NCBI GenBank assembly: GCA_005878515.1
Contig: VBLZ01000096.1
Coordinates: 1-36,171 of the forward strand
DNA: 36,171 bases
Reading direction: 5' to 3'
From: Methanobacteriota archaeon
Lineage (GTDB): Archaea; Thermoplasmatota; Thermoplasmata; RBG-16-68-12
Part shown: piece by piece, positions 8,869-24,462 of the stretch
Position numbering within the stretch: position 1 is the stretch's first letter
Layout of the letters: the number at the start of each line of letters is the position of its first letter
Program-made: the position numbers and the translations under genes
The notes under the pieces: generated by a model
What the model saw: only the letters and a program-made list of their open reading frames with translations
Told to the model about the DNA's origin: nothing
The model's database searches: none

Positions 8869-8961
8869 CGAACCGATCCGGGAGCGAAGGGCCGCCCATA
8901 AGCGATTTGCCGCCGGACGACGGCGCGTAACCCTTGTAGCCTCGCCCGCCTATGTCGGTCC

Positions 8962-8966
8962 GGAGG
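8962..8966 (+). promoter_or_regulatory. Shine-Dalgarno-like GGAGG, 5 nt upstream of the ACT-protein ATG.
   Basis: The sequence reads ccGGAGGgggacATG. Confidence 0.45.
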
Positions 8967-8971
8967 GGGAC

Positions 8972-9346
8972 ATGATCCAAATTGACTTGGAGGTCCCGGA
9001 CCGGCCGGGGGAGCTCGCGAAGCTCGCGGCGATCTTGGGAGATGCGGGCATCAACATCGACGCGATCGGCGCCGAGTCTGCGGGCGGGCGATCGTATGTG
9101 AGCCTGATCGTCAACCAGCCGATGCAGGCGCGGGAGGCGATGATGAAGAGCGGATACGCTTGCTCGACGCGGACCGTCCTCGTCGTCCGCCTGGACGACA
9201 AGCCGGGCGCGCTGGCCGCCCTCGCACGGAAGCTGGGAGACGCCGGAGTCGACGTCGTCAGCGCGATTCACCTCGGCACCGTGGGTGGTCATGCCCAGGT
9301 CGCTCTCGGGGTCGACAACTTGGAACGGGCGCGATCGTTGGTATGA
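8972..9346 (+). CDS. ACT domain-containing protein (two tandem ACT folds).
   Basis: 124 aa. Two copies of the ACT signature are present: IDLEVPDRPGELAKLAAILGDAGINIDAI and LVVRLDDKPGALAALARKLGDAGVDVVSAI. Confidence 0.8.
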   Translation: MIQIDLEVPDRPGELAKLAAILGDAGINIDAIGAESAGGRSYVSLIVNQPMQAREAMMKSGYACSTRTVLVVRLDDKPGALAALARKLGDAGVDVVSAIHLGTVGGHAQVALGVDNLERARSLV

Positions 9347-10912: not shown

Positions 10913-10963
10913 AGCGGCTTCCCTCCCAGAAAGAAATCAGGTCAGATAACCACCAAACGGCGC

Positions 10964-10970
10964 TTAAATA
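10964..10970 (+). promoter_or_regulatory. TATA-box candidate TTAAATA (context cTTAAATAgg), about 205 nt upstream of the giant ORF.
   Basis: It shares a 10-nt core with the element at 9428-9438. No other AT-rich box lies between 10913 and 11175. Confidence 0.25.
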
Positions 10971-11175
10971 GGTCCGAACGGAACCCGCTGTAACCCCACG
11001 CAGACGCTCGTCAGAGTCGTGACGGCTTGAACGTCTCATGTGCAGAACTGCCAGGTTCCAACTACGACGTCGCACGAGGTGACTCAACCGGAATCCCCCG
11101 GCCTTCCGCTGCGTCGGTGAGCGGTACCGCCGCTCCGTCCAACCACTCCCTCCCGGAACGCGCCGTGGTGTTTTC

Positions 11176-14100
11176 GTGAAGGCGCGAACCGCGTTCCTCG
11201 TCGCCTTCGTCATGCTTGCAACCGCCGCCCTGGTGGTCGTCAGCCAGTCGATGCCCGACCCGCTCGCGAAGTTCAGGACTCCCGACGGTCGGCTCACGAT
11301 TCCGGGCCGTGCGTTGACCCCGGAACTGCAACGGCTGCTGTTCCATGGCAATGACCTGCAGCCTCTCACCAATGTCACCTTCCTTCTCCCGGTGCGATCT
11401 TCGTATCCGACGGAGCGCCTCGTCGCCATCTCATTCGCGTCTCCAAATCTCAACGTCTTGGTTCATCCGCGGCAAGCGCCGGAAACGTGGGGCAGCGCCA
11501 TCGATCACGTCCTCCGAGTGTGGTTCCCTCCCGTCGACTGGCACGAGGTGGCAGTCGGATTCCGAAACTCGATCCGGGACGGCGTTGGGTGGTTTTTCGA
11601 TCTCTTCACGATGAACGCCAAGGCCGACGCATTGACGGTCGATTCGACGACCGTCGCAGTCGTCGACCCCGCCGCGGCAACCTGCACGACCTCCCAATCG
11701 GCGGCCGCGGGCGACAACGCGGTACTCGTGATGCTCAGCAATCGCGGGCCCACCGCGTACGCGAGCGTCACGTACGGCTCGGTCAGCCTGAGCCTGATCC
11801 CCGGGACCGCCACGAGCGGCACCGGAATCGTGCGCTCGGAGATGTGGTTTTACCAAGGCGCGATTCCAGGCGGCGCTCAAACGATGACGGCCACCCTCGT
11901 GAGTGGCACCGCGAAACAAGTGTGTGCCACGGTCCTCTTAGGGGGAGTCTTGGCCGCGACCCCGACCGCAGGGGGAACCGCGGCGAGCGGGACGACTGCG
12001 AATCCGAACATCTCGATCTCCCCGGCATCCGCCGGTGAACTGGCCTTCGCGGTCCTGGGGATCCGAGGGACCACGGCACCGACGGCCGTCACCGGCACGG
12101 GGGCCACCGCGACGTCTCTCTATGGAATCGCGCCGACTCAGTGCGCCGCCGCGCCCAATAGTTTTTGCGGCGCGGGGGCCGACATGCCCTTCCCCGGGAC
12201 GGCAATCACGTGGACGGACGGCAACGCCACCGACTGGGTCATCTCCGCGGTTCGCGTGTTGCCCACCCCGAACTGCGGCGTTGCGTCGGGGAACTGCTAT
12301 CGGATCGGCGCGGGTGGGACGTGGGCCACGGGTGCGAACTGGTCGAACACGTCCGGCGGGGCGGCGTGCGGCTGCACGCCCGTTGCGACGAACGATGTGA
12401 TCTTCAATGCCACCCCCACCGGCACCACGACCCTTGCGGCAGCCACGACGATCGCGAGCATCGACATGACGGGCTTCACCGGCACGCTCGATACGACCGC
12501 ATCCAACTGGGCGCTCACCGTCAACGGTCCATTCGCCATTCAGGGGACGTTCCAGGCTCGGAGTTCGACGATTACGATCACCGGGGACGTCGACGTGCTC
12601 ACCGCGGCGACGATCATCAATCTCGGCGCATCGAGCTGGACGGTCAACGGCCTGTGGACCAACCTATCGACCTCCGCCTCGTGGGCCGCGGGGACGAGCA
12701 CGGTGACGATTCGAGATGCGACAAGCGGGACGCTCACATTCGCGGCACTGGCTGGCGGAGCGAACGAGTTCAACAATCTCACGCTGGATGCCAGCGTGAC
12801 TACGAGCATCACGTACACGATGGCAGTAAACCCGTTGAGGATGGGAGCGACCCTCACGATCCGCAACTCGACCGGCGGGGCGACGGGACCGACTATCTTG
12901 ACGACATCGGCGTCGAACTTCGGCATCACCGCGGGGGCGCTCGCCATTGCGACCTTCGGAAGCTTGACCGCGAACGGGTCGGCCATTGCGTTCAACGGCA
13001 ACGTGAACGTCAGCGCGGCGAACGGCTACGTCGTCATGGGTACGTCGGCATGGACCGTCACGGGGACCTGGACGAACGCGTCGACGTCCGCCTCGTGGAA
13101 CCCCGGGACCGGTACGGTCACGTTCACGAGCGCGACCGGCGGGACGATGACGTTCGCCGGGACGAATCTTCCGGGCAACGAGTTCAACAATGTTTCTTTC
13201 AACTCCTCGGCGGCGTCCGTCCAGACGTTCACGATGGCGACAAGGGCCCTCATCTGGGGCGGGACGCTCACGATCTCGGACGGTTCCTCGACGACGGCGC
13301 TCGCAACGGCCAATCTCGGCCTGACTGGCGGCGCACTCAGCGTCGGCAACGGCGGTATCCTCACCGCTAACGCTTCCACGGTAACCGTGTCGAGCGTGGC
13401 GATGACCGGGGGAACGAGCGGAACGATCACGCTCACGACCGGCTCGTTCACCAGCAGCGGCAACTGGGACACGAGCGGAGCCGGCTCCGTGTTCACGAAG
13501 GGCACGAGCACGGTGACGATGAGCGGTGTCGCCAACATCGCCATTCTGAACGCGAGCAACAACTTCAACAGCCTCGTCATCTCGGCGGCGGGAACGGTCA
13601 CCCAAACCGGCCTCGTGGACGTCTCCGGGACCTTGACGGTGAATGCCGGCTCAATCCTCGCGAGCGGCACCTTCACGCTGACCGTGGCCACCCTCGCAGC
13701 GAACATGGCGGGTGGAATCACCGGGGGGGCGGCGGGCACGAAGACGATCACCGGCAATGTCAGCATCGCCGCCTCGGGATACTTCGGCTTCGGTGCGACG
13801 ACTTGGAACTTCGGCGGTTCGTGGACGAACTCGTCGACGAGCGGATCGTGGTCCGCCGGAACGGGGACGGTCGTCTTCAACTCCGGCTCGTCTCGCACGA
13901 TGACCTTCGCCAACTTGGGAGTCTCTGAGTTCAACAACGTGCAGTTCGGCCCTACCGCCGCCGCGACGTTCACTATGGCGACGAACGGCCTCCGATGGGG
14001 AGGCACGTTGACCCTCAACAACAATGCGACCCTTTCGACCACGAACCTCGCGTTGACGGGCCCGGGAGGAAACCTCACGGTGAACAACGGGGCCACCTTG

Positions 14101-17100
14101 ACGGCGGGCACGTCCGCCGTGAGTGTGACCAACGTGGCGATGACCGGCGGAGTCTCCGGGACGATCACGGCCTCGGGCTCATGGACCGTCGCAGGGAACT
14201 GGGACACGTCCGGAGGGGGCTCCGTCCTCACGGCGGCTTCGAGCACCGTCACGATGAGCGGAGCCGCGAAGACCGTCAAGATCCTGAACGCCTCCAACGG
14301 CTTCGGCGCACTCACGATCAGCGGCACCGTCACCGCGGCATCGGCGATCACCCTGGCCGGCCTCCTGACGGTCAGCGGCACCTTCGACACGACCGCGACT
14401 AACTACGGCCTGTCCGTCGGCGGCGGCCTGACGGTCAGCAGTGCCACGGGGGTCTTCCGGTCAAACGGATCGACCGTCTCGGTGGCCGGGAATGTTTCCG
14501 TGAACAATGCGGGCGGCTACATCACGTCAGGCGGCGCCGGTTCGTGGACCGCCTCCGGATCCTGGACAAACGCGTCCACATCCGCGTCCTGGAATTTCGC
14601 GTCTCCCATCATGTTCAACTCATCGGCCTCCCAGACGATGACCTTCGCCGTCCTCCCGGGAGCTGCCTCCGAGTTCACCGACATCGCCTTCAACAGCGGC
14701 GCGTCGACCGTCACGTTCACCATGGCGGCGAACCGCCTCATTTGGTCGGGGACCTTGTCGGTCCAGGGTGGGGCCGGAGCGACGACCCTCGCGACGAGCA
14801 ACCTGGCCCTCACCGGCGGCGCACTCACCCTCGGCAACGGGGGTGTGCTGACCGCGAATGCATCGGCAGTCAGTGTATCGAACGTCGCGATGACCGGCGG
14901 TACCTCGGGCACGCTGACGCTGACCACCGGCGCGTGGACCGTGACCGGGATCTGGGACACCTCCGGCGCAGGATCGACATTCGCAGCCGGATCGAGCACC
15001 GTCACCATGACCGGAGCGGGCACGACCGTCAAGATCTTGGACTCGTCGAACGGGTTCGCCGCTCTCACCGTTAGCGGCACTCTCTCCGCGGCATCGGCCC
15101 TCACAACGGCGGGACTCGTCACCGTGAGCGGCACGCTCGACACGACGGGCGCGAACTACGGCCTCACGATCGGCGGCGGACTCACCGTCAGCGGTGCGAC
15201 CGGGGTCCTTCGCGCGAACGCCTCGATTGTCTCCGTCGCCGGGAACGTGAATATCAACAGCGCCACGGGCTACATCACGTCGACGGCCGGCGGTTCTTGG
15301 ACCGCGTCCGGATCATGGACGAACTCCTCGACATCGGCCTCGTGGAGCTTCGTCGCCCCGATCACCTTCAACTCCTCGGCCTCACGAACAATGACATTCG
15401 GCAACCCGACCCTGGAGTTCGCCGGGAACGTCACGTTCAACTCCGGCGCCTCGACGGTCACGTTCACGATGGCGGCGAACAGCCTGGACGTCGGCGGGAC
15501 GCTCACGATAGCGGGCGGAGCCGGCACGACGACGCTGAACACGAGTGGTTCAAACCTCGCGATCAACCCGGCCACACTGGTCGTGAACGCGGGAGGAGCC
15601 CTCACGGCCAACGGGTCCATCATCACGGTTACCTCGATGGATACCCATCTCGGGACATTCACGGTCGGCGCCTCGACCGTCGTCGTGAACGCGTCGGGCG
15701 GCTCCATTAACGTCACGCAGACGGTCAACAATCTCACGGTCACACCCGCCGTCTCGACGACGTTCACAGGATCTCTCACATGGACAGGAACGCTCGCCTT
15801 CACGAACGCCGGGAGCGTCGCATTCGGAACGAACAGCCTGACCTCGAGTGGCGCCGCGACCTTCACGTTCGCGTCGGCAACGATCACGATGAGCTCGGGG
15901 AACTGGGATACGTCTTCGGCCACGACCTTCACGGCGACGAGTTCGACGGTCACGTTCTCAGGGACGGGGAACCTTCGAGTCGGGGGAAGCGCCTCCTTCG
16001 GCGCGCTCACGGTCAGCGGCGGCACCCGGACCCTCCAGAGCCAACTCACGACGTCGGGACTGCTGACCCTTTCGGGCGGCACCCTCGCCAAGGGGACGAA
16101 CGCGCTCACCGCCAACGCCGGGATCACGATGTCGGGCGGCGCGCTCACCTCCACGTCCGGTGCGGTCAGCATCACCGGCAATGTATCGATCGCGGCCGCG
16201 TCCTACATCGTCTTCGGTTCCGAGACTTGGACCGTGAGTGGCTCGTGGACGGACAATTCCACGTCGGCGAGTTGGTCGATTGGAACCGCGACCGTGGCCT
16301 TCAACGCGTCCTCGGCGCAGACGATGACGTTCGCGGCGCTCCCGGGGAACGCACCCGAGTTTTACAACGTGACCTTCAACAGTGGCGCGTCAACGGTCAC
16401 ACTCACGATGACGACGAACGCGCTGGCTTGGTCGGGAATCCTCACGGTCCAAGGAGGGGGCGGGGCGACGACGCTCGCCACGAGCAATCTCGGACTCACC
16501 GGAGGCGCCATCGTCGTCGGCAATGCGGGAGTCCTCGCCGCGAACGCCTCCGCGGTGTCGATATCCGGATTGACGATGATTGGAGGGACCAGCGGCACGT
16601 TGACGCTGACGACCGGTTCATGGGCCGTCTCCGGCAACTGGAACACCAGCGGGGCGGGCTCGGCATTCTCGAAGGGAACATCGACGGTCACCTTCACCGG
16701 GGCCGGGCAGACGGTATCCATCCTCAACGCTTCGAACGGGTTCTACAACCTCGCCGTCTCGGGGACCGTCACCCAGTCCACCGCCATCGATGTGACGAAT
16801 TCCTTGACGGTGAGCGGAACTCTGACCACCGGAGGGTTCAACATTACGGGCGGTTCGAACCTCTCCGTCCCGGATGGTGGCACCCTGGCGGCAGGCACCT
16901 CGACGTCCACGTTCACGAACGTCACGATGACCGGCTCGATCTCAGGCACGATCACCCTGACGGGCGCATGGACGGTCAGCGGTTCTTGGGACAGCACCGG
17001 GGCAGGCTCGGTTCTGAACCCCGGGACATCGACCGTGACGTTTACCGGGACCTCGCAGACAATCAGCCTCGCGGCGGGCCAGACGTTCTACAATCTCACA

Positions 17101-20100
17101 ATCGGTGGCACGGTTTCCATCAACTCGTCGGTGACCGCGGCGGCGACGCTGACGGTGAACAACGGGGCCGTCCTCACAAAGACGGGCCAGACGATCGCCT
17201 TCAACTCCTTGACGCAGAACGGGACCGGGAGCATCGTCGACGGAGCGATCACCGTCGTGAACTTCTCCGTCACGAACAGTGATGGAACGAATCTCACGGC
17301 CATCAGCGTGTTCACGACATGGACGATCGACGCGGACTACACGTGGACCCATTCATCCACGGTCGCGACCTCGACGATCACCTTTACCATCGGAGGAAAC
17401 ACAATCGGGCATCGATTCAATGTGACTAAGGACGCCGTGGACTTCACGAATGGCTTCGTGAACGGCTCCGGGCAGATCATCTTCACGATGCTCGGTTCGG
17501 ACCCGGTCGTCGACGTCCGCCTTACATCGCCCTGCGGGGGGAATCGATATTGGATCGGTGGGACGGGTGGCTGGTCCCAGACAGGCCATTGGGCGGATTC
17601 GTCGGGCGGGGTGAATGGATGCTCCGTGCCGAACTCTTCGAATCCGGTCTTCTTTGACGCGAGCTCCGGAGGCGGAAGCGTCGCGATTAATCTGAATGGG
17701 GCCGCGGCTTCGCTCAACACGACCGGGTGGACCGGGACGATTGCAATCGGATCGTTCGACCTCGCTGTGAGCGGCGACATTATCCATGCCGCGGGAATCA
17801 TTTCGATTGGCGCCTCCTCGAATGCCGGCCTGACGGCAACCGGGACGCTCACTCTCTCGGGTTCCGCAGTCCTCGACGGGTCCGGCGTGGCGTCTCTGGT
17901 TGCGATCTCCGGCGACACGTCAATCGCGAGTACGTCGGCCTACTTCCGGATGGGCAGCGGCACCTGGACATTCGCAGGCTCCTGGTCTAACAGCAGCACC
18001 TCGACGAACTGGGTCGCGGGAACCGGCGTGGTCATCTTCGATTCGCCGTCTTCGCGAACGTTCACTTTTGCGAATCTGGCGGGCAACGAATTCCACGATG
18101 TGACATTCCAGTCCACGGCGGGCAGCGGCGCAATCATCTTCTCGATGGCAGCGAACGGTCTGCGCTGGAGCGGACTCCTCCAGATCCAAGATTCCGCGGG
18201 ATCGACGACCACCCTGGCGACATTGAATCTCTCCCTGACCGGCGGATCCCTTGCCGTCGGCAACTCGGGAGTGCTCATCGCAAACGCGTCGAGCGTCGCC
18301 GTGGTCGACGTCGCGATGACCGGCGGCGCGTCGGGAACGCTGACCCTCACGAGCGGGTCTTGGACCGTGAGCGGGCAGTGGGACACCTCGGGCGCCGGTT
18401 CGACGTTCGCTCGAGGCACCAGCACGGTCACGATGTCGGGCACGTCGGCGAGCGTCGCGACCCTCGATGCGACCAACGGATTCAACAATCTGGTCATCTC
18501 TGGGACCATCACGCAGAACACCGCGCTCGAGGTGCGCGGCACACTGTCCGTGACGGGCAGGCTCACCACAGCGGGAAACAACATCACCGGCGGTGCCAAC
18601 CTCGCGATCTCCGGAGGCGGAAGCCTGATCGGGACCGCGTCTTCGATCGTCGTCTCCGGGGTGACGATGAACGACGCCGGGACGAATTCCATTTCCCTGA
18701 CGACCGGCTCGATTTCCGCGTCGGGCTCATGGGACACCTCCGGATCGTCCTCGGCTTTCATTGGTGGCTCGTCCACGGTGACCCTCACCGCCGCCTCCGG
18801 AACGATCGCTCTCGGGCCTGCTCAAGCGCTCACGTCGTTAATCATCGCAGGGAGCCTCTCGTCGGTATCTCCGTTGACGGTCTCTTCCCTCACCATCTCC
18901 TCGGGTGGACTCGCCAACGGCCCGCACGCGCTCACGGTGAACGGGAACGTGACGTTGGCCGGTGGCTACCTCACCTCGACGTCCGGGTCCGTCTCGATCG
19001 CGGGAACCGTGAACGTCTCTTCGGCGTCGTCCTACATCGCGTTTGGCTCGGGAACCTGGGTCATCTCCGGGAATTGGACGAACGCGTCGACCTCGGCATC
19101 TTGGTCCGCAGGATCTGCCGTTGTCACATTCAACTCGACGACGGATCAGATCATGACGTTCGCTGGTGCCAACTTGGCCGGCAACGAATTCAGCACGATT
19201 GAGTTTGACAGCGGCTCCTCGACCACGACGTTCACGATGGCCTCCGACGGGCTTGTGGCGCAGACAATCACGATCCAAGGTGGCCCCGGGACGACCACGT
19301 TGACGACCTCGGGCGCGAGCCTCCCGATTATCGCGAACGCCCTGACGGTTGACGTTGGCGGGGCGCTCACCGCGAACGCGAGCATCCTGACGGTTCGCTC
19401 GCTGAGCACTGCCGCCGGCGCATTTGCTGCCGGGACCTCGACCGTCGTCGTCAACATCTCCGGCGGCTCCATCAACGTCACGCAGACTCTGCACGATGTC
19501 GTCGTGAGCCCTGGGATCAGCACGACCTTCGCCTCGAGCATCACTTGGTCCGGGGCGCTGACACTGACGAGTTCCACGTCCATTTTCGACGGCAATCTCA
19601 CTTCGAGCGGTCCTGCGGTCCTCAATCTGGGAACCTCCACGCTGTCGATCGCGGGATCATGGGACACCTCCTCGGCAGCGACCCTCATGTCGATCGGCTC
19701 CGCGGTGACCTTCACCGGCGGGAGCGGCTCGATCACCCTCGGTGCGGGCCAGCGGTTCGCCACACTGACCATCGCCGGGACCGTCGCTCTCGGGTCCGAC
19801 CTGACCGCGGACACCCTGTCCGTGACGACCTCGAACGTACTGACGATGACGAGCCACCGCATCGCATTCAACAGCCTGACGGTCAACGGGACGATTGCGG
19901 ACGGATCCGTGAACGCGACCGACCTCACGGTCACGAACAGCGATACGACGGCCTTGGTCACCATCGCGGGGTTCAGCGAGTGGTCCCGAGGTTCCGCGTA
20001 CGCCTGGACCCATACCTCCAGCGAATCGTCCCAGACGATCACGTGGTCGATTGGTGGAAATGCCGCGGGCATCCCGTATACGGTGACGAAAGACGGCTCG

Positions 20101-23100
20101 TCGTTCGCAACCGGAACCGTCACCAGTTCCGGTCAGGTCGTCTTCACGATGCTCGGGTCCGACCCCGCGATGCAAGTGACGGTGCACAATCCGATTCCGC
20201 CGCCATGGTGGCAGTCCTCCTACATGCTTGCGATCTTTCCCATTGGAATCTTGTTAGGTGTTGCAATGTTCGCGCAACGACAGCGCTGGAGGCCCGCGAA
20301 GGCCTTCCTCGTGGACGACAGCGGGAGAATGCTCAGGGAATTCACCCTGGACTCGGCCTGCCTGGTCACGTACGACCAGGCGGTCCAGGCCGGCATCTTG
20401 GACGCGGTCGAGAAGCCAATCAAGGTCGCAAAGTACCACGGCCAGACGGTCCGCGGGGATGCACTGGCGGTCGTGCTCCTCGCCTACGGACCGGTCACGC
20501 CGGAGCACGTAGAGTTCGCTCGGGAGATGCTCGTCCAGATTCAGGACAAATTCGAGGACGCGGTCAAGCAACGTCTGGAAGAGGCCCGTGCCCAAGAGGC
20601 CAACGTGGCGACGCAGATGGACGACCTCGCGACCCACCGGGCCGAAGTCGAGGCCCGAGCGGCCGAAGTCCAAACGATGGCCCAGCAAGCGGAGACCGTC
20701 CAGGCGAAAATCACCGCGGACACCGAGGCCGTCGAAGCGAAGGAGCAGGATCTTCGACGACGGGAAGAGGAGTTGGCGAACAACCGCAAGGCCGTCGATG
20801 AGCTGGCCCGCCAAATCGAAGAGGACCGGAGCTCCCTCGACCGACGCACGGGGGAAGTTCAAGACCGGGCGGCCGAAATCGCCGCGAAGTCCGAGACGGT
20901 CCAGGGTCGAGAGGAAGCGGTCAGCGCGCTCGAGGAGACCCTTCGGGACCGAGACACGGCCCTCGCGACGGGAGAAGCCGGACTTCAGGAAATCCGGGAG
21001 CGCCTTGCGACGGACACGTCGGCGGTGCAAGCGAGACTCGAAGAAGCCGGACAGCGTGAGGAAGCCCTCGGTCGCAATCAAGAAAACCTCTCGAATGCCC
21101 GCGAGAAATTCGAGGCGGACCAGAGAGAGCTGCTCGAGTTCAAACGTTCCATCGACAGCCGGGTCAGCGCCGTCGAGGAGACCGAAGTCGCGATGGACCG
21201 TCTGTCGAAGGACCTCGCCGCGCGAGAAGCCCGCATCGTGCCCGAGGAGTCACGCCTCGCGGAGCGGGCGAATGTCGCGAACCAGAAGGAAGCCGATCTG
21301 AAAGCCCGCGCGGACGAGCTGACAACGAGAACCCAGACGCTCGACGGGCGCGAGCAGGAGCTGACCAGCCGCGAAGTCGCGGTCAACGAGGACCGCGTGG
21401 TCCTCGAGGAAGCGCGCGGGGCGTTCGAGTCCGATCGGAGAGAGTTCGAGGAGCGCAAGAACCAGCACGACGAAGAGGCGCGCCGACGTCGAAACGACCT
21501 GGACGGTCAAGCCAAGACGGTCGGCGAGAGTCAGCTTCGCTTGGCCCAGGAGAAGGAAAATCTCGATACTGCGCACAGCGAGAGGAGTCAGGCTATCCTG
21601 TCCCGGGAGATCGAGCTCGAGGCCCGCGAACAATCCCTCCAAGAGAACGAAGAAGCCAACCGCACCCAGGCGGACGAAAACGCCAGGCGCTTTGGCGAAC
21701 TGGCCGGTCGGGAGGAGTCCCTCGAAATCGAAGCAGCGAAGGCCGACAAGGTCCGGAGCGACCTCGAAGCCCGGAAGGCCGATCTCGCGAATCGCGCCAA
21801 AGAACTCGAGGAAGAGGGGGCTCGATTGCGGGGCGAGGAGACGAAGGCGGCCGAGGAGAGACGGACCTGGCAGACGACGTTGCAGTCCGAGCAAGCGTTG
21901 CTCAAGGGCCAGCGAGACGCGTTCGAGCAGGACGCCGCTTCGGCGCGTGCCTCGTGGGCCGATCGGGTAATGCGGATTGAGGCGCGCGAAGTCGACGTCG
22001 AAGAAAAGGAAGAAAAGGTCCGGACCGACATCGACTGGGTCGCTCGAAGCGACGAGGACCTCAAGCGCCGCGAGAAGGCCGCCGAGGAAGCGGGGCGGTC
22101 CGCGGCGCAGGTGCAGGCGAGCGCCGAACGCGCTACGAAGGAGGCCGAACAGCGATTCCTCGAGATCGAGTCGCGCGAACGCGCCCTTCGGGAAGAGGCC
22201 GCGCACGAAGCGATCGAACTCACCAAGCGGACGGAGGCGTTGAAGCAATTCGACACCGAGCTGAGTTCGAAACAGGCCGACTTCGAGAAGGAGCGAACGG
22301 TGCAGACCCAGCGACTCCAGGAGACCGAGACCGAGCTGCATTCAAGGGCCGACACCCTGGAGGCGAAACGCCGCGAACTAGAGGAACGAGAGACCCGCAT
22401 CGCGGGGACGGAGGAGTCGCACCGGCAGAGCGACCAGCGACTTCAGCAGGAACGTGCCGACCTCCAGGCGACCGCGAAACAGCTCGAATCCCACCAGCTC
22501 GAACTCGCGCAGCTCAAAGACCGTTACGAGTCGGAAGCCGCACGCGTCCGCAGTGAAGCGGAGGGCATGCGGCAATCCGTGGCGGCCAAGGAGTCGGAAC
22601 TGCATGCCGAGCGCGAGCGGATCGAGCGCGATTCGTCCGCCCTCCAGGAGACCCTCGGCGCGAAGGCGAAGGAGATGTCGGTCCGAGAACGAGCGCTCAC
22701 CGCGCGCGAGGCAGAGCTCCAAACCGAAGAGCAAGAGCTCGAGGCCCGCGGACGAGAGCTCGAATCAAAAGAACGCCAAGCCGAAGCCCATCTGACCGAG
22801 ATGTCCGCGCAGGCAATGGCCCTCATCCGGCGAGAGCAGGACCTGAACGCCCGAGGAACCCAGATCGAACAGACCGTGCGTCGGTTCGAGTCGGAGGCGA
22901 CGGAGAAACGCCGCGAGTGGGAGTCCCTTCAGACGAGCCTGAAGTCGCAGCAAGCCCAATTCACTGTGTCGTCGGAATCTCGCGCCGGCGAGCTCGCGAA
23001 GAAAACGGAGGAGCTTGAGGGACGGGATCGCAGCCTGCGCGCGTCTTCGGCCCAGTTGGAGGTCGAACGATCCAAGCTCGATGCTGAAGCGAAAAACCAA

Positions 23101-24462
23101 TCCGCCAAAAGCGCAGAAGCGGATGCGGCCTGGCGACGATCGGAAGCCCGTCTCGCGGAGCTCAAGGCGAAGGAAGACGAGTTGCTCCGTGCCCGCCAGT
23201 CCTTCGAATCGGACCGCTCCACCTGGTCCGCCCGACGAACCGAAGAGCTGAAGCAACTCGAGGCGACGCGGGATGCGGCCGCACAACAAGCCCAGCAGAC
23301 GGAGCGGCTCCTGGCGGAGTCCCAGCGCAGGGCCCTCGTCGCAGAAGAAGCGGAGCGCGCGGCAAAACGCCAGACGACCGACCTCGCCGCTCAACAGGCG
23401 CGCCTGGAGAGTCGCCGGGCCGAAGCCGAGAAGGCGGAGCGCGACGCACAAGGTCACCTGGCACAGTTGCAGGAAGCTTCGCGGAAATTGGCGGTCAAGG
23501 ACATGGAAATCGTTACCGCCGTCAAGGATCTCGAGGCGCGGCAGTCGAAGCTTGCGGCCGCGGAGAGGGATTCCGCGGCGATTCAAGCGGAGTTGCGCTC
23601 CCGAAAAACGACCTTGGACCAAGACGCCGCACGAATCACCGCGTCGTCGGACCAGCTGACGATGCGCCAGAAAGATCTGGAGTCGCGGACGGCCTCCCTC
23701 GAGACCAAGGTAGCCCAGGCCTCTACGAAAGAACAGGCCCTGGCGACGGAACTGCAACGCGCGGACAACCTCATGGAGGATCTCACCAAGAAGGAGCACG
23801 ACCTTCGCGCCCGCGAAGAGGCCGCGAAGACTTCCGAGAAGACTCTCGCGGCACGGGAGACGACCCTCGTCGCACGCGATGCCGAGGTCCGGGACGGGAT
23901 GCGGAGCCTCGAAAAGCTCCGCAAGGAAATCGAAGACCAGCGCGGCGCCACCGAGGAAGACCGTCGAACCGCGAAGACCACCCGAGAGGAAGCGGAATCG
24001 ACGAAGCGCGAGGCAGACAAGATCCGGGCTCAGGCCGACGAAATGCAGTCGGAGGTGAACAAGAACCTCCGGTTCCTCCAGAAGAAAGCCCTCGACGTGT
24101 TGGATCAGGAGGAGAAAATCCGAGCTCGCGTCGCCGCGATCGAAGGGGAGGAGAAATCGCTCGACACCCGGGCGGAAATCCTCGAAGGGAAAGAGCGGGC
24201 CCTCGAAGCGGACCAGGCCGCTCTCGACTCCAAGGTCGCGAAGCTCCAGGCCGAGATCGATCGATTGCGCGGGAGCATTGCCGATGCGGAGAAATCCGGA
24301 GGCCCGACGACCGCCGCGATGGAAGAGTGGAAGAAGGACGTCGAGAGTCGCGTGAAGATCATTCAGAAGAAGGCCATGGACCTGCTGGACCGCGAGGAGA
24401 AACTCCGGAAGAAAGAGGAGGAGCTCCGCGCGCTCGCGAGCCAACTCGGCGTGAACCCCTGA
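11176..24462 (+). CDS. Giant (4,428 aa) single-pass membrane protein. It has a signal/anchor, a ~3,000-aa uncharged T/S/G/A-rich beta-solenoid-like repeat ectodomain, a TM helix, a ~95-aa alpha/beta module and a ~1,300-aa charged coiled-coil tail.
   Basis: The ORF is an uninterrupted 13,287 nt. The GTG at 11176 is the first start codon after the in-frame stop at 11080-11082. It is followed by MKARTAFLVAFVMLATAALVVVSQ. The TM helix SSYMLAIFPIGILLGVAMFAQ lies at nt 20215-20277 and is followed by RQRWRPAK. The tail is E/R/A/K/Q/L-rich with very few Pro or Gly residues. Confidence 0.92.
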   Translation: MKARTAFLVAFVMLATAALVVVSQSMPDPLAKFRTPDGRLTIPGRALTPELQRLLFHGNDLQPLTNVTFLLPVRSSYPTERLVAISFASPNLNVLVHPRQAPETWGSAIDHVLRVWFPPVDWHEVAVGFRNSIRDGVGWFFDLFTMNAKADALTVDSTTVAVVDPAAATCTTSQSAAAGDNAVLVMLSNRGPTAYASVTYGSVSLSLIPGTATSGTGIVRSEMWFYQGAIPGGAQTMTATLVSGTAKQVCATVLLGGVLAATPTAGGTAASGTTANPNISISPASAGELAFAVLGIRGTTAPTAVTGTGATATSLYGIAPTQCAAAPNSFCGAGADMPFPGTAITWTDGNATDWVISAVRVLPTPNCGVASGNCYRIGAGGTWATGANWSNTSGGAACGCTPVATNDVIFNATPTGTTTLAAATTIASIDMTGFTGTLDTTASNWALTVNGPFAIQGTFQARSSTITITGDVDVLTAATIINLGASSWTVNGLWTNLSTSASWAAGTSTVTIRDATSGTLTFAALAGGANEFNNLTLDASVTTSITYTMAVNPLRMGATLTIRNSTGGATGPTILTTSASNFGITAGALAIATFGSLTANGSAIAFNGNVNVSAANGYVVMGTSAWTVTGTWTNASTSASWNPGTGTVTFTSATGGTMTFAGTNLPGNEFNNVSFNSSAASVQTFTMATRALIWGGTLTISDGSSTTALATANLGLTGGALSVGNGGILTANASTVTVSSVAMTGGTSGTITLTTGSFTSSGNWDTSGAGSVFTKGTSTVTMSGVANIAILNASNNFNSLVISAAGTVTQTGLVDVSGTLTVNAGSILASGTFTLTVATLAANMAGGITGGAAGTKTITGNVSIAASGYFGFGATTWNFGGSWTNSSTSGSWSAGTGTVVFNSGSSRTMTFANLGVSEFNNVQFGPTAAATFTMATNGLRWGGTLTLNNNATLSTTNLALTGPGGNLTVNNGATLTAGTSAVSVTNVAMTGGVSGTITASGSWTVAGNWDTSGGGSVLTAASSTVTMSGAAKTVKILNASNGFGALTISGTVTAASAITLAGLLTVSGTFDTTATNYGLSVGGGLTVSSATGVFRSNGSTVSVAGNVSVNNAGGYITSGGAGSWTASGSWTNASTSASWNFASPIMFNSSASQTMTFAVLPGAASEFTDIAFNSGASTVTFTMAANRLIWSGTLSVQGGAGATTLATSNLALTGGALTLGNGGVLTANASAVSVSNVAMTGGTSGTLTLTTGAWTVTGIWDTSGAGSTFAAGSSTVTMTGAGTTVKILDSSNGFAALTVSGTLSAASALTTAGLVTVSGTLDTTGANYGLTIGGGLTVSGATGVLRANASIVSVAGNVNINSATGYITSTAGGSWTASGSWTNSSTSASWSFVAPITFNSSASRTMTFGNPTLEFAGNVTFNSGASTVTFTMAANSLDVGGTLTIAGGAGTTTLNTSGSNLAINPATLVVNAGGALTANGSIITVTSMDTHLGTFTVGASTVVVNASGGSINVTQTVNNLTVTPAVSTTFTGSLTWTGTLAFTNAGSVAFGTNSLTSSGAATFTFASATITMSSGNWDTSSATTFTATSSTVTFSGTGNLRVGGSASFGALTVSGGTRTLQSQLTTSGLLTLSGGTLAKGTNALTANAGITMSGGALTSTSGAVSITGNVSIAAASYIVFGSETWTVSGSWTDNSTSASWSIGTATVAFNASSAQTMTFAALPGNAPEFYNVTFNSGASTVTLTMTTNALAWSGILTVQGGGGATTLATSNLGLTGGAIVVGNAGVLAANASAVSISGLTMIGGTSGTLTLTTGSWAVSGNWNTSGAGSAFSKGTSTVTFTGAGQTVSILNASNGFYNLAVSGTVTQSTAIDVTNSLTVSGTLTTGGFNITGGSNLSVPDGGTLAAGTSTSTFTNVTMTGSISGTITLTGAWTVSGSWDSTGAGSVLNPGTSTVTFTGTSQTISLAAGQTFYNLTIGGTVSINSSVTAAATLTVNNGAVLTKTGQTIAFNSLTQNGTGSIVDGAITVVNFSVTNSDGTNLTAISVFTTWTIDADYTWTHSSTVATSTITFTIGGNTIGHRFNVTKDAVDFTNGFVNGSGQIIFTMLGSDPVVDVRLTSPCGGNRYWIGGTGGWSQTGHWADSSGGVNGCSVPNSSNPVFFDASSGGGSVAINLNGAAASLNTTGWTGTIAIGSFDLAVSGDIIHAAGIISIGASSNAGLTATGTLTLSGSAVLDGSGVASLVAISGDTSIASTSAYFRMGSGTWTFAGSWSNSSTSTNWVAGTGVVIFDSPSSRTFTFANLAGNEFHDVTFQSTAGSGAIIFSMAANGLRWSGLLQIQDSAGSTTTLATLNLSLTGGSLAVGNSGVLIANASSVAVVDVAMTGGASGTLTLTSGSWTVSGQWDTSGAGSTFARGTSTVTMSGTSASVATLDATNGFNNLVISGTITQNTALEVRGTLSVTGRLTTAGNNITGGANLAISGGGSLIGTASSIVVSGVTMNDAGTNSISLTTGSISASGSWDTSGSSSAFIGGSSTVTLTAASGTIALGPAQALTSLIIAGSLSSVSPLTVSSLTISSGGLANGPHALTVNGNVTLAGGYLTSTSGSVSIAGTVNVSSASSYIAFGSGTWVISGNWTNASTSASWSAGSAVVTFNSTTDQIMTFAGANLAGNEFSTIEFDSGSSTTTFTMASDGLVAQTITIQGGPGTTTLTTSGASLPIIANALTVDVGGALTANASILTVRSLSTAAGAFAAGTSTVVVNISGGSINVTQTLHDVVVSPGISTTFASSITWSGALTLTSSTSIFDGNLTSSGPAVLNLGTSTLSIAGSWDTSSAATLMSIGSAVTFTGGSGSITLGAGQRFATLTIAGTVALGSDLTADTLSVTTSNVLTMTSHRIAFNSLTVNGTIADGSVNATDLTVTNSDTTALVTIAGFSEWSRGSAYAWTHTSSESSQTITWSIGGNAAGIPYTVTKDGSSFATGTVTSSGQVVFTMLGSDPAMQVTVHNPIPPPWWQSSYMLAIFPIGILLGVAMFAQRQRWRPAKAFLVDDSGRMLREFTLDSACLVTYDQAVQAGILDAVEKPIKVAKYHGQTVRGDALAVVLLAYGPVTPEHVEFAREMLVQIQDKFEDAVKQRLEEARAQEANVATQMDDLATHRAEVEARAAEVQTMAQQAETVQAKITADTEAVEAKEQDLRRREEELANNRKAVDELARQIEEDRSSLDRRTGEVQDRAAEIAAKSETVQGREEAVSALEETLRDRDTALATGEAGLQEIRERLATDTSAVQARLEEAGQREEALGRNQENLSNAREKFEADQRELLEFKRSIDSRVSAVEETEVAMDRLSKDLAAREARIVPEESRLAERANVANQKEADLKARADELTTRTQTLDGREQELTSREVAVNEDRVVLEEARGAFESDRREFEERKNQHDEEARRRRNDLDGQAKTVGESQLRLAQEKENLDTAHSERSQAILSREIELEAREQSLQENEEANRTQADENARRFGELAGREESLEIEAAKADKVRSDLEARKADLANRAKELEEEGARLRGEETKAAEERRTWQTTLQSEQALLKGQRDAFEQDAASARASWADRVMRIEAREVDVEEKEEKVRTDIDWVARSDEDLKRREKAAEEAGRSAAQVQASAERATKEAEQRFLEIESRERALREEAAHEAIELTKRTEALKQFDTELSSKQADFEKERTVQTQRLQETETELHSRADTLEAKRRELEERETRIAGTEESHRQSDQRLQQERADLQATAKQLESHQLELAQLKDRYESEAARVRSEAEGMRQSVAAKESELHAERERIERDSSALQETLGAKAKEMSVRERALTAREAELQTEEQELEARGRELESKERQAEAHLTEMSAQAMALIRREQDLNARGTQIEQTVRRFESEATEKRREWESLQTSLKSQQAQFTVSSESRAGELAKKTEELEGRDRSLRASSAQLEVERSKLDAEAKNQSAKSAEADAAWRRSEARLAELKAKEDELLRARQSFESDRSTWSARRTEELKQLEATRDAAAQQAQQTERLLAESQRRALVAEEAERAAKRQTTDLAAQQARLESRRAEAEKAERDAQGHLAQLQEASRKLAVKDMEIVTAVKDLEARQSKLAAAERDSAAIQAELRSRKTTLDQDAARITASSDQLTMRQKDLESRTASLETKVAQASTKEQALATELQRADNLMEDLTKKEHDLRAREEAAKTSEKTLAARETTLVARDAEVRDGMRSLEKLRKEIEDQRGATEEDRRTAKTTREEAESTKREADKIRAQADEMQSEVNKNLRFLQKKALDVLDQEEKIRARVAAIEGEEKSLDTRAEILEGKERALEADQAALDSKVAKLQAEIDRLRGSIADAEKSGGPTTAAMEEWKKDVESRVKIIQKKAMDLLDREEKLRKKEEELRALASQLGVNP
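12271..17526 (+). repeat. Ectodomain super-module 1. It has a Cys-containing head (NCGVASGNCYRIGAGGTWATGANW), six W-anchored repeat units and a beta-sandwich-like tail (TITFTIGGNTIGHRFNVTKDAVDF...IIFTMLGSDPVVDV).
   Basis: The first Trp codons of the anchor motif SWTxxGxWTNxSTSxSW lie at nt 12636, 13051, 13804, 14545, 15298 and 16228. Spacings are 415, 753, 741, 753 and 930 nt. By eye, units 4 and 5 are about 80 percent identical at the nucleotide level. Confidence 0.85.
17527..20193 (+). repeat. Ectodomain super-module 2. It has a head (SPCGGNRYWIGGTGGWSQTGHW), two W-anchored units and a tail (TITWSIGGNAAGIPYTVTKDGSSF...VVFTMLGSDPAMQV).
   Basis: The head and tail are clearly homologous to those of super-module 1. 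Anchor Trp codons lie at nt 17965 and 19057. The tail nucleotide strings ttcacgatgctcggttcggacccg (17483) and ttcacgatgctcgggtccgaccccg (20145) match. Confidence 0.85.
20215..20277 (+). other. Predicted single transmembrane helix of the giant protein (aa ~3014-3034).
   Basis: It is the only ~21-residue hydrophobic stretch after the N-terminal signal. The ectodomain side is uncharged and the C-terminal side is basic (RQRWRPAK), which by the positive-inside rule implies N-out/C-in topology. The local GC content drops visibly here. Confidence 0.7.
20560..24440 (+). other. Cytoplasmic coiled-coil region of the giant protein (~1,300 aa).
   Basis: The region is rich in E/R/A/K/Q/L, with long Pro/Gly-free runs. 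A degenerate xRE(E/Q/R)x(L/V/I)xxxE element recurs about 20 times. Examples are QGREEAVSALEE, DGREQELTSREV, EAREQSLQENEE, AGREESLEIEAA, ESRERALREEAA and SVRERALTAREA. Confidence 0.75.

Follow-up and report, generated by a model that had tools for sequence, protein, structure and literature searches.

The stretch of DNA analysed here (the window, 36,171 nt of a Thermoplasmata contig) is dominated by a single giant ORF on the + strand, positions 11176-24462, which begins with a GTG codon and runs for 4,428 codons and a stop codon with zero internal stops, occupying 36.7% of the window. On the same strand, 263 nt upstream, lies a mid-size paralogue, and this spacing suggests that the two genes are transcribed separately. 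The flanks carry genes for PAN, an ADP-forming acetyl-CoA synthetase, an ACT protein, PLP enzymes, ZIP and AhpC, as well as radical SAM, GNAT, acyl-CoA dehydrogenase, AlaX and MDH genes; these are genes of ordinary metabolism and offer no functional link to the giant protein. The features of the giant protein and its paralogue are collected in Table 1. An earlier note on this DNA had described one uninterrupted ORF covering 37% of the window and split sharply in two by a hydrophobic helix, and both descriptions stand, as the frame is free of stops and composition switches at residues 3014-3034.

Table 1. Features of the giant gene and of the paralogue upstream of it.
Feature	Residues	Position (nt)	Strand	Basis
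Mid-size paralogue, no ectodomain	468 aa	9506..10912	+	BLASTP, module HMM, hydropathy
Signal peptide or signal anchor, MKARTAFLVAFVMLATAALVVVSQS	1-25	11176..11250	+	strongest hydropathy peak, 2.46
Membrane-distal N-terminal globular head	26-364	11251..12267	+	composition; conservation
Uncharged T/S/G/A/N/V repeat shaft 1	365-2116	12268..17523	+	motif map, periodicity, diverged DNA repeats
Repeat shaft 2	2118-3003	17527..20184	+	motif map, periodicity
Single transmembrane helix	3014-3034	20215..20277	+	hydropathy 2.07, conserved flanks
TM-proximal longin/roadblock-type α/β domain	3035-3140	20278..20595	+	AF2, Foldseek
Heptad coiled-coil rod	3141-4370	20596..24285	+	periodicity, register, conservation profile
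G/P linker AEKSGGPTTAA and family-defining C-terminal helix		24286..24459	+	conservation

At a GC content of 64.5%, 4,428 consecutive stop-free codons would arise by chance with a probability of ~1e-50, and the GC3 of the ORF (~0.8) matches that of the neighbouring genes. The gene is nonetheless long, internally repetitive and drawn from a short-read metagenome, which is where one would look for an assembly chimera, or for two genes fused through repeat-driven misassembly or a frameshift. Misassembly is unlikely because the DNA repeats inside the ORF are only 60-77% identical, because stop-free frames of 4,440-4,497 codons are found at five loci (L001-L004 and L006) from two independent projects and assemblers, and because three of these (L001, L002 and L006) are colinear with the giant gene in a codon alignment across 4,427-4,428 codons. 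In the same three comparisons dN/dS is 0.06-0.36, well below 1, in all seven regions of the gene, indicating that purifying selection acts on it in three independently assembled relatives. Furthermore, the succession of ectodomain, TM helix, module and coiled coil recurs in >25 loci and in many fragments. An artefact of any of these kinds is hardly credible, and the giant ORF is a real gene, carried by a soil archaeon of the Thermoplasmata.

The N-terminus is signal-like, as had been claimed, with its Kyte-Doolittle peak at residues 5-23, and signal-like N-termini are kept at the equivalent place in family members P0046 and P0054. The head that follows contains six Cys, has a normal charge content near its start and is conserved among solenoid-type orthologues, with zero matches in Pfam and PDB sequence searches. 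Beyond it the composition becomes extreme: over residues 381-3010, D/E/K/R amount to 4.1% and T/S/G/A/N/V to 72.6%, in agreement with the earlier description of the first ~3,000 residues as nearly free of charge. Two tandem shafts, together ~2,640 residues of uncharged repeats, have the same layout, each opening with a Cys motif (PNCGVASGNCYRIG... in shaft 1, SPCGGNRYWIGG in shaft 2) and closing with an FTMLGSDP domain, which in shaft 1 reads Y-x-WTH-x-S ... FTMLGSDP. The shafts show hydrophobic periodicities of 7.26 (~7.3) and ~2.2 residues, and in identity autocorrelation the lags 22, 251 and 496-580 stand out, a pattern suggestive of a putative β-helix with ~22 residues per coil. Zero matches were obtained for the ectodomain with Pfam and NCBIfam passenger or β-helix repeat profiles, and a search of PDB sequences with a 910-aa shaft piece and the head returned nothing at E <= 1. 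Self-BLAST of the ectodomain gave zero off-diagonal HSPs at the settings used, the repeats being shown instead by motif mapping and autocorrelation.

Similarity between relatives is discordant between the two halves of the protein. For instance, the cytoplasmic parts of P0046 and P0044 are colinear over 1,503 residues at 66% identity, but their ectodomains have no similarity; for the giant protein and P0035 the cytoplasmic identity is 58%, again with no ectodomain similarity. The reverse is seen for P0044 and P0040, with ectodomains 52% identical and cytoplasmic parts 37%. The alternative ectodomains contain CBM96, ConA-like and Ig-cadherin modules (Pfam), which are of carbohydrate-binding and adhesin type. 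This discordance indicates that the cytoplasmic chassis is conserved and that the ectodomain it carries is swapped as a cassette, being a β-solenoid-like shaft in some members and CBM96, ConA or Ig-cadherin modules in others.

Topology and coiled-coil calls were made from hydropathy, the positive-inside rule, periodicity and the existence of paralogues without signal peptides. The second-strongest Kyte-Doolittle peak of the giant protein covers residues 3015-3033, flanked by PPWWQ on the N-terminal side and QRQRWRPAK on the C-terminal side, and this pattern of WW, hydrophobic stretch and basic cluster is kept in all long family members. N-x-S/T sequons number 69 in the ectodomain and 3 in the tail, although the ectodomain count exceeds that of shuffled sequences by z = 1.8 only, which is not significant. 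Soluble paralogues in the family open directly with the module and have no signal peptide, which places the module and coiled coil in the cytoplasm. Together with the conserved signal peptide, these observations agree with both the TM helix and the N-out/C-in orientation put forward in the earlier note, and the giant protein is predicted to be a type-I single-pass membrane protein. Long extracellular coiled-coil stalks do occur in archaeal surface proteins, Staphylothermus tetrabrachion being one, and a topology of that kind would turn the coiled coil into an extracellular surface-layer stalk and deprive residues 3014-3034 of their role as a compartment-spanning anchor. A tetrabrachion-type stalk has its anchor C-terminal, after the coiled coil; the hydrophobic helix of the giant protein lies between the two halves and precedes the coiled coil. 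The basic cluster conserved directly after this helix, the scarcity of sequons in the tail and the signal-peptide-free paralogues in which module, coiled coil and terminal helix recur likewise make such an arrangement very improbable.

Directly behind the membrane lies the ~95-aa α/β module that had been recognised from sequence, and it folds confidently in AF2 as a longin/roadblock-type α/β sandwich (pLDDT 91.9, pTM 0.79 from a 41-sequence alignment). A 5-sequence alignment gave a pLDDT of 51, and the 41-sequence alignment was used for the fold. In the model the elements run β-β-α-β-β-β-α with no N-terminal helix; the strands and first helix extend to about residue 3105, and the last helix continues into the coiled coil. 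This arrangement corresponds to the longin fold, a β-β-α-β-β-β-α(α) sandwich of ~110-120 aa, and departs from the roadblock order α-β-β-α-β-β-β, which starts with a helix. Longin and roadblock domains account for nearly all of the top 50 Foldseek matches in the PDB, a few others being profilins, and the neighbours include AP-3 μ/σ, ζ-COP, Rag, LokiRagO, MglB, LAMTOR and SRX. Similarity is moderate (E = 5e-3 to 8e-2 with none below 1e-3, TM 0.35-0.62), the top longin matches (AP-3 μ/σ, ζ-COP, AP-2, AP-4 and SRX) reaching TM 0.48-0.62 at E = 5e-3 to 4e-2. At the sequence level, none of the 41 module sequences matched a roadblock (Robl_LC7) model even at E <= 10, the sole match to longin-type Pfam families was one of the 41 (Fuz_longin_1, E = 0.19), and neither the single sequence nor the 41-sequence profile found a meaningful match among PDB sequences. 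The cytoplasmic tail of a neighbouring surface protein was considered as a further copy of the module and rejected at sequence level (hhalign probability 1%).

All close structural neighbours of the module are GTPase-interacting longin or roadblock domains, and the module sits directly at the membrane, with conserved surface-type residues that include a nearly invariant Cys (C3062). Combined with ectodomains that are variable and resemble ligand-binding modules, this could point to an adhesion or signalling receptor, in which the ectodomain would bind or sense some substrate, the module would serve a small GTPase or another switch protein as a regulatory platform, and the coiled coil would be a scaffold recruiting effectors. 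Models for such a receptor would be MglB-MglA, Ragulator-Rag, SRX-SRβ and AP/COPI-Arf1, with outside-in signalling similar to that of integrins and focal adhesions. However, neither the window nor the conserved flanks contain a gene for a GTPase or another switch protein, and the module is without a match to longin or roadblock sequence families. A receptor also leaves unexplained a rod of 700-1,400 aa with conserved islands and a terminal helix that is better conserved than the module, and we consider this explanation unlikely.

The tail (residues 3136-4428) contains 41.7% D/E/K/R and 2.7% Pro plus Gly; there are 3 Pro in its 1,293 residues, and the rod is interrupted by one of them only (residue 3356). 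Fourier analysis gives peaks at 3.5, 2.33 and 7 residues, at ~75x the median power, and a heptad register can be assigned with only 9 breaks in 1,263 residues. L/I/V/M/F fill 47% of a and d positions and 5% of the other positions, a clear hydrophobic seam that sets the tail apart from single α-helix (ER/K) domains. These periodicities indicate that the tail forms a heptad coiled coil, as the earlier note had supposed, and is not disordered; the length estimate of the note, on the order of 200 nm if continuous, also agrees with the ~190 nm that an extended coiled coil would measure. By a heuristic reading of the register, with 35% Leu at d, 31% Glu at e and 30% Arg plus Lys at g, the rod fits a parallel dimer.

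Conservation along the tail is uneven. The first ~300 residues of the rod are variable and are followed by conserved islands at residues 3454-3573, 3814-3843 and 4024-4083, and the family motif also occurs inside the rod, at residues 4297-4319 (nt 24064-24132, NLRFLQKKALDVLDQEEKIR). The C-terminal helix (WKKDVESRVKIIQKKAMDLLDREEKLRKKEEELRAL, nt 24328-24435), within a conserved end of ~45 aa, is the most conserved segment of the giant protein, at 0.78 identity over 9 orthologues. In 23 family members, which range from 304 to 4,767 aa, the helix is found ~30-45 aa before the C-terminus, and its dN/dS values of 0.058, 0.066 and 0.148 are the lowest of all regions in two of the three comparisons. 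A profile search with the helix found no match in Pfam or the PDB. A resemblance to the MIM1-like Vps4-binding motif was considered and set aside, as by eye the Leu/Arg spacing departs from the consensus. Tail length in the family varies from ~690 to 1,400 aa and is therefore not that of a strict ruler, and the conserved islands and terminal helix indicate that the tail is more than a spacer.

The same two ends are found in the mid-size paralogue, where a longin-like module (~nt 9599-9922) is followed by ~290 aa of coiled coil and then by the family C-terminal helix (~nt 10790-10909). Its ATG is placed at 9506 within an ORF open from 9479, and the start of the orthologue P0056 corresponds to 9506; the N-terminus is weakly hydrophobic (peak 1.56 at residues 17-35). 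In BLASTP against the cytoplasmic part of the giant protein the modules align (residues 32-140 with 24-130), as do the last ~150 aa (E = 1e-12), and the module HMM matches the paralogue at E = 1.5e-36. Wherever a related locus includes this flank, the paralogue is immediately 5' of the gene in the giant position, and the order (mini-paralogue) - mid paralogue - giant is kept in related MAGs. A second clade of the family adjoins Cu-ATPase and DNA ligase genes.

An exhaustive search of 1.84 billion proteins yielded 98 clusters as the whole family, and all clusters that could be placed belong to Thermoplasmata MAGs, except for one 1.7-kb contig binned as a bacterium, which is probably mis-binned. 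Module, coiled coil and terminal helix thus define a small, Thermoplasmata-restricted and previously unannotated family. The earlier note knew of no characterised archaeal protein with this architecture, and profile-library, PDB sequence and homology searches found no characterised homologue. Word-indexed searches with the module, the N-terminal 640 aa and a C-terminal helix profile returned close relatives and fragments only, all 'hypothetical' and free of Pfam domains, and Pfam and NCBIfam scans of the giant protein in three pieces and of the paralogue gave only sub-threshold coiled-coil noise of SMC-like or 'helix-rich' type. PHROGs and PADLOC scans matched zero families, and so gave no phage tail-fibre or anti-phage defence profile. 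A search of species-representative genomes for short members of the P0078 type found none, and their only contig is 1.3 kb. Literature searches found no description of the family, whose members are labelled only 'hypothetical' or bear the incorrect names 'chromosome segregation ATPase' or SbcC.

The family also includes soluble and TM-only paralogues that have the same ends and lack an ectodomain, and the best-conserved terminal helix follows a flexible linker, an arrangement typical of a docking peptide. These features would suit an intracellular tether, in which the ectodomain is secondary and the anchored rod holds or spaces the nucleoid, division machinery, vesicles or storage bodies through its terminal helix, in the manner of golgins or of polar organisers of the DivIVA/PopZ/Scy type. 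The 'chromosome segregation ATPase' label of one member might be read in the same direction, but it comes from a single automatic source and reflects coiled-coil composition only. No ATPase, DNA-binding or division domain was detected in the Pfam and NCBIfam scans, a partner was not found, and a tether does not account for the huge ectodomain of the syntenic giant-position gene, which is under purifying selection (dN/dS 0.12-0.24). This explanation is improbable.

The function that we infer, as a tentative first choice, is that of a membrane-anchored surface fibre or adhesin fixed to a sub-membrane coiled-coil scaffold that is built with paralogues. The ectodomain would be a glycosylated fibre or adhesin with its binding head distal, ~55-60 nm long if it forms a β-helix of 22 residues per coil, and the carbohydrate-binding and adhesin-type Pfam domains of the alternative ectodomains count for a binding role. 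A lone TM helix would not be load-bearing in a possibly wall-less cell, and on this ground we propose that the longin-like domain forms dimers on the cytoplasmic face of the membrane, either homodimers or pairs with the neighbouring paralogue, dimerisation being typical of roadblock and longin domains. The module dimer could then nucleate a parallel two-stranded coiled coil of up to ~190 nm under the membrane, and the terminal helix and conserved rod islands might dock rods to each other, to paralogues or to a common partner. The adjacent paralogue has both module and terminal helix in common with the giant protein, which counts for co-assembly, as does the gene order kept in related MAGs. The outcome would be a sub-membrane scaffold that anchors and spaces surface fibres, in effect a surface-to-cytoplasm coupler.

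A broader and more doubtful proposal is that Thermoplasmata possess an envelope-spanning system in which longin-like/coiled-coil proteins polymerise by their conserved ends into a sub-membrane skeleton, some of them carrying exchangeable giant fibres. If so, such a system could structurally replace a cell wall or S-layer in these archaea, and one prokaryotic polypeptide would do what integrin-talin or LINC linkages do, mechanically joining the outside of the cell to a scaffold within. Cultured Thermoplasmatales, one order of Thermoplasmata, have no S-layers, and cryo-ET shows an unidentified, unordered exterior protein layer of ~20 nm (PMC12448462). Envelope organisation in wall-less or S-layer-less Thermoplasmata is an open question for which this family offers testable candidates, in the form of a membrane-proximal longin-like domain, a rod of up to ~190 nm, a putative terminal docking helix, ectodomain-less neighbouring paralogues and surface cassettes exchanged between lineages. 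A cytoplasmic scaffold has long been suspected in this group, and to our knowledge none has been identified so far. Because the module belongs to no known sequence family, it would place a longin-type fold at the plasma membrane in an archaeon outside the Asgard group, with a bearing on the age of such platforms. Furthermore, signatures of the module, rod and C-terminal helix would permit correct annotation of the family.

Parts of the giant protein resemble a number of known systems. Membership of the SMC/Rad50 group was considered and rejected, as there are no ATPase head halves and no central non-helical hinge, with one internal Pro; the TIGR02168 (SMC) match to the tail (52 bits, cut-off 567) covers the arm region only and is compositional. 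The LINC complex and integrin-talin likewise connect, across a membrane, a binding element on one side with a filamentous scaffold inside, but they are eukaryotic, multi-protein and unrelated in sequence and fold, and likening the giant protein to them is a functional analogy and mechanistic speculation. Giant β-helical adhesins (autotransporter and two-partner-secretion passengers, NosD-like proteins and archaeal halomucin) have, like the ectodomain, thousands of low-charge T/S/G/N-rich repeat residues, and the ~22-residue periodicity, compatible with a parallel β-helix, and the distal head fit the same pattern. Unlike these adhesins, the giant protein has its own TM anchor and a huge cytoplasmic domain, and its ectodomain has no Pfam or PDB sequence match. 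Wall-less Mycoplasma similarly pairs giant surface adhesins (P1/Gli349-type) with an HMW2-type cytoplasmic coiled-coil cytoskeleton, as separate polypeptides and not as one chain. The match of the giant protein to the NCBIfam Mycoplasma 'helix-rich' model (42 bits, cut-off 270) is compositional, with no homology, and the locus shows no sign of terminal organelle or motility genes.

The closest parallels concern the cytoplasmic half. Longin and Roadblock/LC7 domains, the best Foldseek matches, share with the module a size of ~100 aa and a five-stranded antiparallel sheet with flanking helices, and in the systems compared (AP-complex σ/μ N-domains, ζ-COP, SRα SRX, MglB, LAMTOR/Ragulator, Rag C-terminal domains and Asgard roadblock proteins) such domains typically serve as dimerising platforms; the longin order of elements is that of the module. 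In contrast to those families, the module has no sequence-family match, its TM-scores are only 0.35-0.62, and it is fused behind a TM helix with its last helix becoming a coiled coil of >1,200 residues. Longin SNAREs (Sec22b, VAMP7 and Ykt6) also have a longin-type domain, a helix that forms coiled coils and one membrane anchor in the same polypeptide, but in the order longin, SNARE motif and C-terminal TM, as opposed to TM, longin-like domain and coiled coil. Their SNARE motif is ~60 aa long, compared to ~1,260 aa of coiled coil in the giant protein, they have no ectodomain, and a Pfam scan found no match of the giant protein to SNARE families. Golgins, giantin and other long membrane-anchored tethers of eukaryotes likewise have a rod-like coiled coil of 100-200 nm held by one membrane anchor, with conserved docking motifs at the ends. 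They are unrelated in sequence, and golgins are tail-anchored and essentially without a lumenal part, whereas the anchor of the giant protein is N-terminal to the rod and bears a 3,000-aa ectodomain.

The giant is a type-I membrane protein whose large ectodomain is built of repeats and whose cytoplasmic part comprises a longin-type domain at the membrane, a very long heptad rod and a terminal helix that is conserved. Its ORF spans 4,428 codons from a GTG start, with zero internal stops, as the single uninterrupted frame of the earlier note required; the chance of a stop-free run of this length at the window GC of 64.5% is ~1e-50, and GC3 along the ORF (~0.8) equals that of the flanking housekeeping genes. 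Stop-free frames of 4,440-4,497 codons are found in five related loci (L001-L004 and L006) from two independent projects and assemblers, and codon alignments of the giant with L001 (about 90-93% protein identity), L002 and L006 are colinear across 4,427-4,428 codons, with dN/dS of 0.06-0.36 in each of seven regions. Since, in addition, the DNA repeats inside the gene are only 60-77% identical, misassembly is unlikely, and the view that the ORF is an artefact is scarcely credible. Long ORFs on the opposite strands, including a 575-aa frame antisense to the PAN AAA-ATPase gene and frames of 80-460 aa antisense to the giant, were rejected as genes: these are artefacts of high GC, whose odd, R/D/L-rich translations match no family.

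Features of the window and of the giant protein
Feature	Window position (strand)	Residues	Remarks
PAN AAA-ATPase gene	3-1682 (-)		
Opposite-strand long ORFs	75-1802 (+), 8027-9292 (-), many inside 12297-20132 (-)		
Neighbouring surface protein	1859-6235 (-)	1,458 aa	
TM helix of neighbour		1284-1302	
Cytoplasmic tail of neighbour	~1862-2329	~155 aa	
Mid paralogue	9479-10912 (+)		Probable start 9506; directly upstream of giant; without ectodomain
Non-coding gap	10913-11175		263 nt, between mid paralogue and giant
TATA-like element	10963-10973		GCTTAAATAGG
Giant ORF	11176-24462 (+)	4,428 aa	
Head		26-364 (~340 aa)	Directly after N-terminal signal-like segment; six Cys; charge content normal near start
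Shaft 1		365-2116	In tandem with shaft 2
Shaft 2		2118-3003	In tandem with shaft 1
TM helix	20215-20277	3015-3033 (hydropathy peak)	
Module Cys	~20359-20361	3062	
Conserved islands of rod		3454-3573, 3814-3843, 4024-4083	

The architectural reading of the earlier note, a sharp compositional split at one hydrophobic helix, was right and the observation is confirmed. D/E/K/R account for 4.1% of aa 381-3010 (T/S/G/A/N/V, 72.6%) versus 41.7% of aa 3136-4428 (Pro+Gly, 2.7%), and the hydropathy profile has two dominant peaks, one at the signal-like segment (aa 5-23; N-terminus MKARTAFLVAFVMLATAALVVVSQS, conserved in the orthologues P0046 and P0054) and the other coinciding with the helix of the earlier note. 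This TM helix is flanked by PPWWQ outside and QRQRWRPAK inside, a pattern kept in every long family member. In the ectodomain, both shafts open with a Cys motif, C..(C)Y.IG.GG.W...W...GG..C, and close with Y-x-WTH-x-S ... FTMLGSDP; hydrophobicity has periods of 7.26 and ~2.2 residues, and identity autocorrelation has lags of 22, 251 and about 500-580. The shafts would fit a three-sided β-helix with ~22 residues per coil, for which a rise of 0.48 nm per coil predicts a length of ~55-60 nm. The ectodomain matched nothing in Pfam, NCBIfam or the sequences of the PDB. It carries 69 N-x-S/T sequons versus 3 in the tail, counts not above those of shuffled sequence of the same composition (z = 1.8 and 0.1, respectively), and is probably glycosylated.

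The α/β module of ~95 aa noted earlier behind the helix was modelled by AlphaFold2 from a 41-sequence alignment as a confident globular domain (pLDDT 91.9, pTM 0.79) of order β-β-α-β-β-β-α. Of the best 50 Foldseek matches in the PDB, a few are profilins and nearly all the others longin or roadblock domains; they include AP-3 μ/σ, ζ-COP, AP-2, AP-4, SRX, MglB, LAMTOR, the C-terminal domains of Rag and LokiRagO, and Asgard Roadblock2. Because scores are moderate (E = 5e-3 to 8e-2, TM 0.35-0.62), the modelled element order is that of longins and not of roadblocks, and no sequence-profile match was found, the predicted domain is named a longin/roadblock-type fold and is not assigned to either family. 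That the giant is a GTPase-linked adhesion or signalling receptor is unlikely. Of 41 diverse family members, most keep the module Cys, which lies in the motif LD..C and could act in redox sensing, metal binding or lipidation. Elsewhere in the window, the neighbouring surface protein has a signal/anchor segment, a NosD β-helix and Big_5/Big_13 Ig domains ahead of its TM helix, and its cytoplasmic tail, without a Pfam match, has a β-β-α-β-β-α pattern by eye. This neighbour, with syntenic orthologues in L029, L012 and L018, may be a second design of surface protein, TM helix and small cytoplasmic α/β domain; profile comparison of its tail with the giant's module was negative (hhalign probability 1%).

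The last module helix runs uninterrupted into the tail, where the coiled-coil character proposed earlier is borne out by Fourier peaks at 3.5, 2.33 and 7 residues (~75 times median power) and by a hydrophobic seam, with L/I/V/M/F at 47% of a/d positions versus 5% elsewhere. Pro occurs three times in 1,293 residues and the assigned register is broken nine times in 1,263, and position d is 35% Leu, e 31% Glu and g 30% Arg/Lys. Judged from these patterns the tail is a genuine heptad coiled coil and fits a parallel two-stranded rod; the same patterns rule out a tail that is disordered or a single ER/K helix. At full extension the computed length of the rod is ~188 nm, close to the ~200 nm first estimated. 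Its first ~300 residues are variable. Placing this rod outside the cell, as a tetrabrachion-like stalk, is highly improbable.

A Gly/Pro linker precedes a C-terminal helix of ~45 aa with the consensus K(K/R)D(I/V)E.R(V/I)KI(I/L)Q(Q/K)KA(L/M/F)(D/E)LLDREEKLRKREEEL, at aa 4385-4428 of the giant. In 23 complete members, 304-4,767 aa in length, it sits ~30-45 residues before the C-terminus, and neither Pfam nor the PDB has a match to it. It is the giant's most conserved 30-residue window (0.78 versus 0.69-0.74 for the module), and its dN/dS values of 0.058, 0.066 and 0.148 are the lowest or near-lowest among the seven regions. A second, internal copy is located ~90 residues upstream in the giant, at aa 4297-4319, and in the mid paralogue alike. 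The mid paralogue consists of a weakly hydrophobic N-terminus, the giant's module type and a ~290-aa coiled coil, and shares its C-terminal ~150 residues with the giant (E = 1e-12).

An exhaustive profile search with the module against 1.84 billion representative proteins returned only 98 clusters, in three architectures. The first, a solenoid ectodomain with TM helix, module and rod, is represented by P0046 (4,767 aa) and P0054 (4,099 aa), so that the layout whose recurrence had been in question does recur. The second joins the same TM helix, module and rod to wholly different ectodomains (P0035, P0037, P0040, P0044, P0050 and others), with Pfam matches to CBM96, disaggregatase repeat, ConA-like DUF1349/GH43_C2 and Big_9/Cadherin_5. 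The third comprises short proteins of 190-750 aa with the module at the start, with or without a TM helix. Where source names exist, they are 'hypothetical protein', from Thermoplasmata/Methanobacteriota MAGs, or coiled-coil-driven mis-annotations. Species-representative genomes yielded 29 loci, 28 of them in Thermoplasmata MAGs from soils, sediments or aquifers, among which are the 'EA_*' bins of grassland soil, 'SMAG' Thermoplasmata, RBG_19FT_COMBO_69_17 and uncultured Methanomassiliicoccales. The exception, L022 (DATEYD010000285.1), is 1.7 kb long and stands in a bin labelled 'Candidatus Paceibacterota bacterium'; it holds a fragment of a giant-family gene, its module 72% identical, and is probably a mis-binned Thermoplasmata contig. 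The giant's lineage is probably the order RBG-16-68-12, that is, Ca. Angelarchaeales (PMC9038741). Soluble members of ~740 aa occur in a second Thermoplasmata clade (L030-L040, e.g. L037:6810-9101); they consist of a MFGKKLSKGFLVD... module and a ~600-aa coiled coil, lack TM helix, ectodomain and RVKIIQ terminal helix, and adjoin genes for a Cu-transporting P-type ATPase and DNA ligase, and one is auto-annotated as 'chromosome segregation ATPase'. The family is Thermoplasmata-restricted and unannotated, and a literature search found no description of it.

Gene order is conserved in related MAGs: ADP-forming acetyl-CoA synthetase, ACT protein, in most a mini-paralogue, mid paralogue, giant-position gene and, on the strand opposite to the latter, a Cys/Met PLP enzyme. 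The mini-paralogue (~190-260 aa; L011-L013, L016-L018 and L027-L029, e.g. L029:8539-9249) lies upstream of the mid paralogue; its N-terminus is disordered, the module is followed by a coiled coil of ~80 aa with LRDYA..MQR.F at its end, and the terminal helix is lacking. It is absent from the window (between 9346 and 9479), which has two module-bearing genes only. No Rfam family or tRNA was found in the whole window. The TATA-like element lies ~205 nt upstream of the giant's GTG, and thus the giant would have either a long 5' leader or a closer, unrecognised promoter.

The giant-position gene always keeps TM helix, module and rod, and its ectodomain type changes between lineages. The cytoplasmic parts of P0046 and P0044 agree at 66% over 1,503 colinear residues and those of the giant and P0035 at 58%, with no detectable ectodomain similarity in the former pair and none in the latter, whereas P0044 and P0040 agree at 37% in the cytoplasmic part and 52% in the ectodomain. 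Ectodomain dS is 2-4 times below tail dS even among close relatives (0.21-0.41 versus 0.73-0.98 against L002; 0.57-0.75 versus 1.05-1.61 against L006), which suggests that the ectodomain cassette was recently recombined or transferred there too. By the type switching, the discordant similarities of the two halves and the lower ectodomain dS, the cytoplasmic cassette is a conserved chassis that carries an exchangeable surface cassette, the latter recombined near the TM junction.

In the proposed working, the ectodomain would be a surface fibre or adhesin, and the alternative cassettes carry modules of carbohydrate-binding and Ig/cadherin type. Dimers would form between longin-like domains, possibly giant with paralogue, by analogy to the paralogous roadblock pairs of Ragulator and Rag, and would nucleate a coiled coil with parallel strands. 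Through the terminal helix and the conserved islands, rods and paralogues would be linked in a scaffold beneath the membrane, and the fibres would be anchored to it. This proposal as a whole is the favoured reading but a tentative one, possible and slightly short of probable. The earlier functional reading, a surface-to-cytoplasm linker or membrane skeleton, is plausible; that the giant represents a new envelope-spanning surface-to-scaffold system is doubtful. Use of the rod and its docking helix as an intracellular tether or positioning device is distinctly unlikely. Cultured Thermoplasmatales, which belong to a different order, are without S-layers; a disordered, unidentified protein layer of ~20 nm forms their exterior (PMC12448462), a context that fits the scaffold proposal and proves nothing.

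The find is richer than the earlier note described, to which are added a family, a longin-type domain, a conserved docking helix, paralogues that have no ectodomain, and the exchange of ectodomains in the manner of cassettes. Sequence-membership tests of the giant were negative for Roadblock/LC7, longin, SMC and β-helical adhesin families, and for phage proteins and defence systems. Its module resembles longin/roadblock platforms by fold, and its layout recalls longin SNAREs, but the order is reversed and the rod is 20 times longer than theirs. Golgins likewise have a membrane-anchored rod of 100-200 nm with terminal docking motifs, but are without an ectodomain, and Mycoplasma has giant adhesins and coiled-coil cytoskeletal proteins, but as separate polypeptides; the likeness to integrin-talin or LINC couplings is a functional analogy. 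The kinds of protein that the giant unites, anchored surface fibres of giant size and scaffolds of long coiled coil, are known; their combination is previously undescribed.
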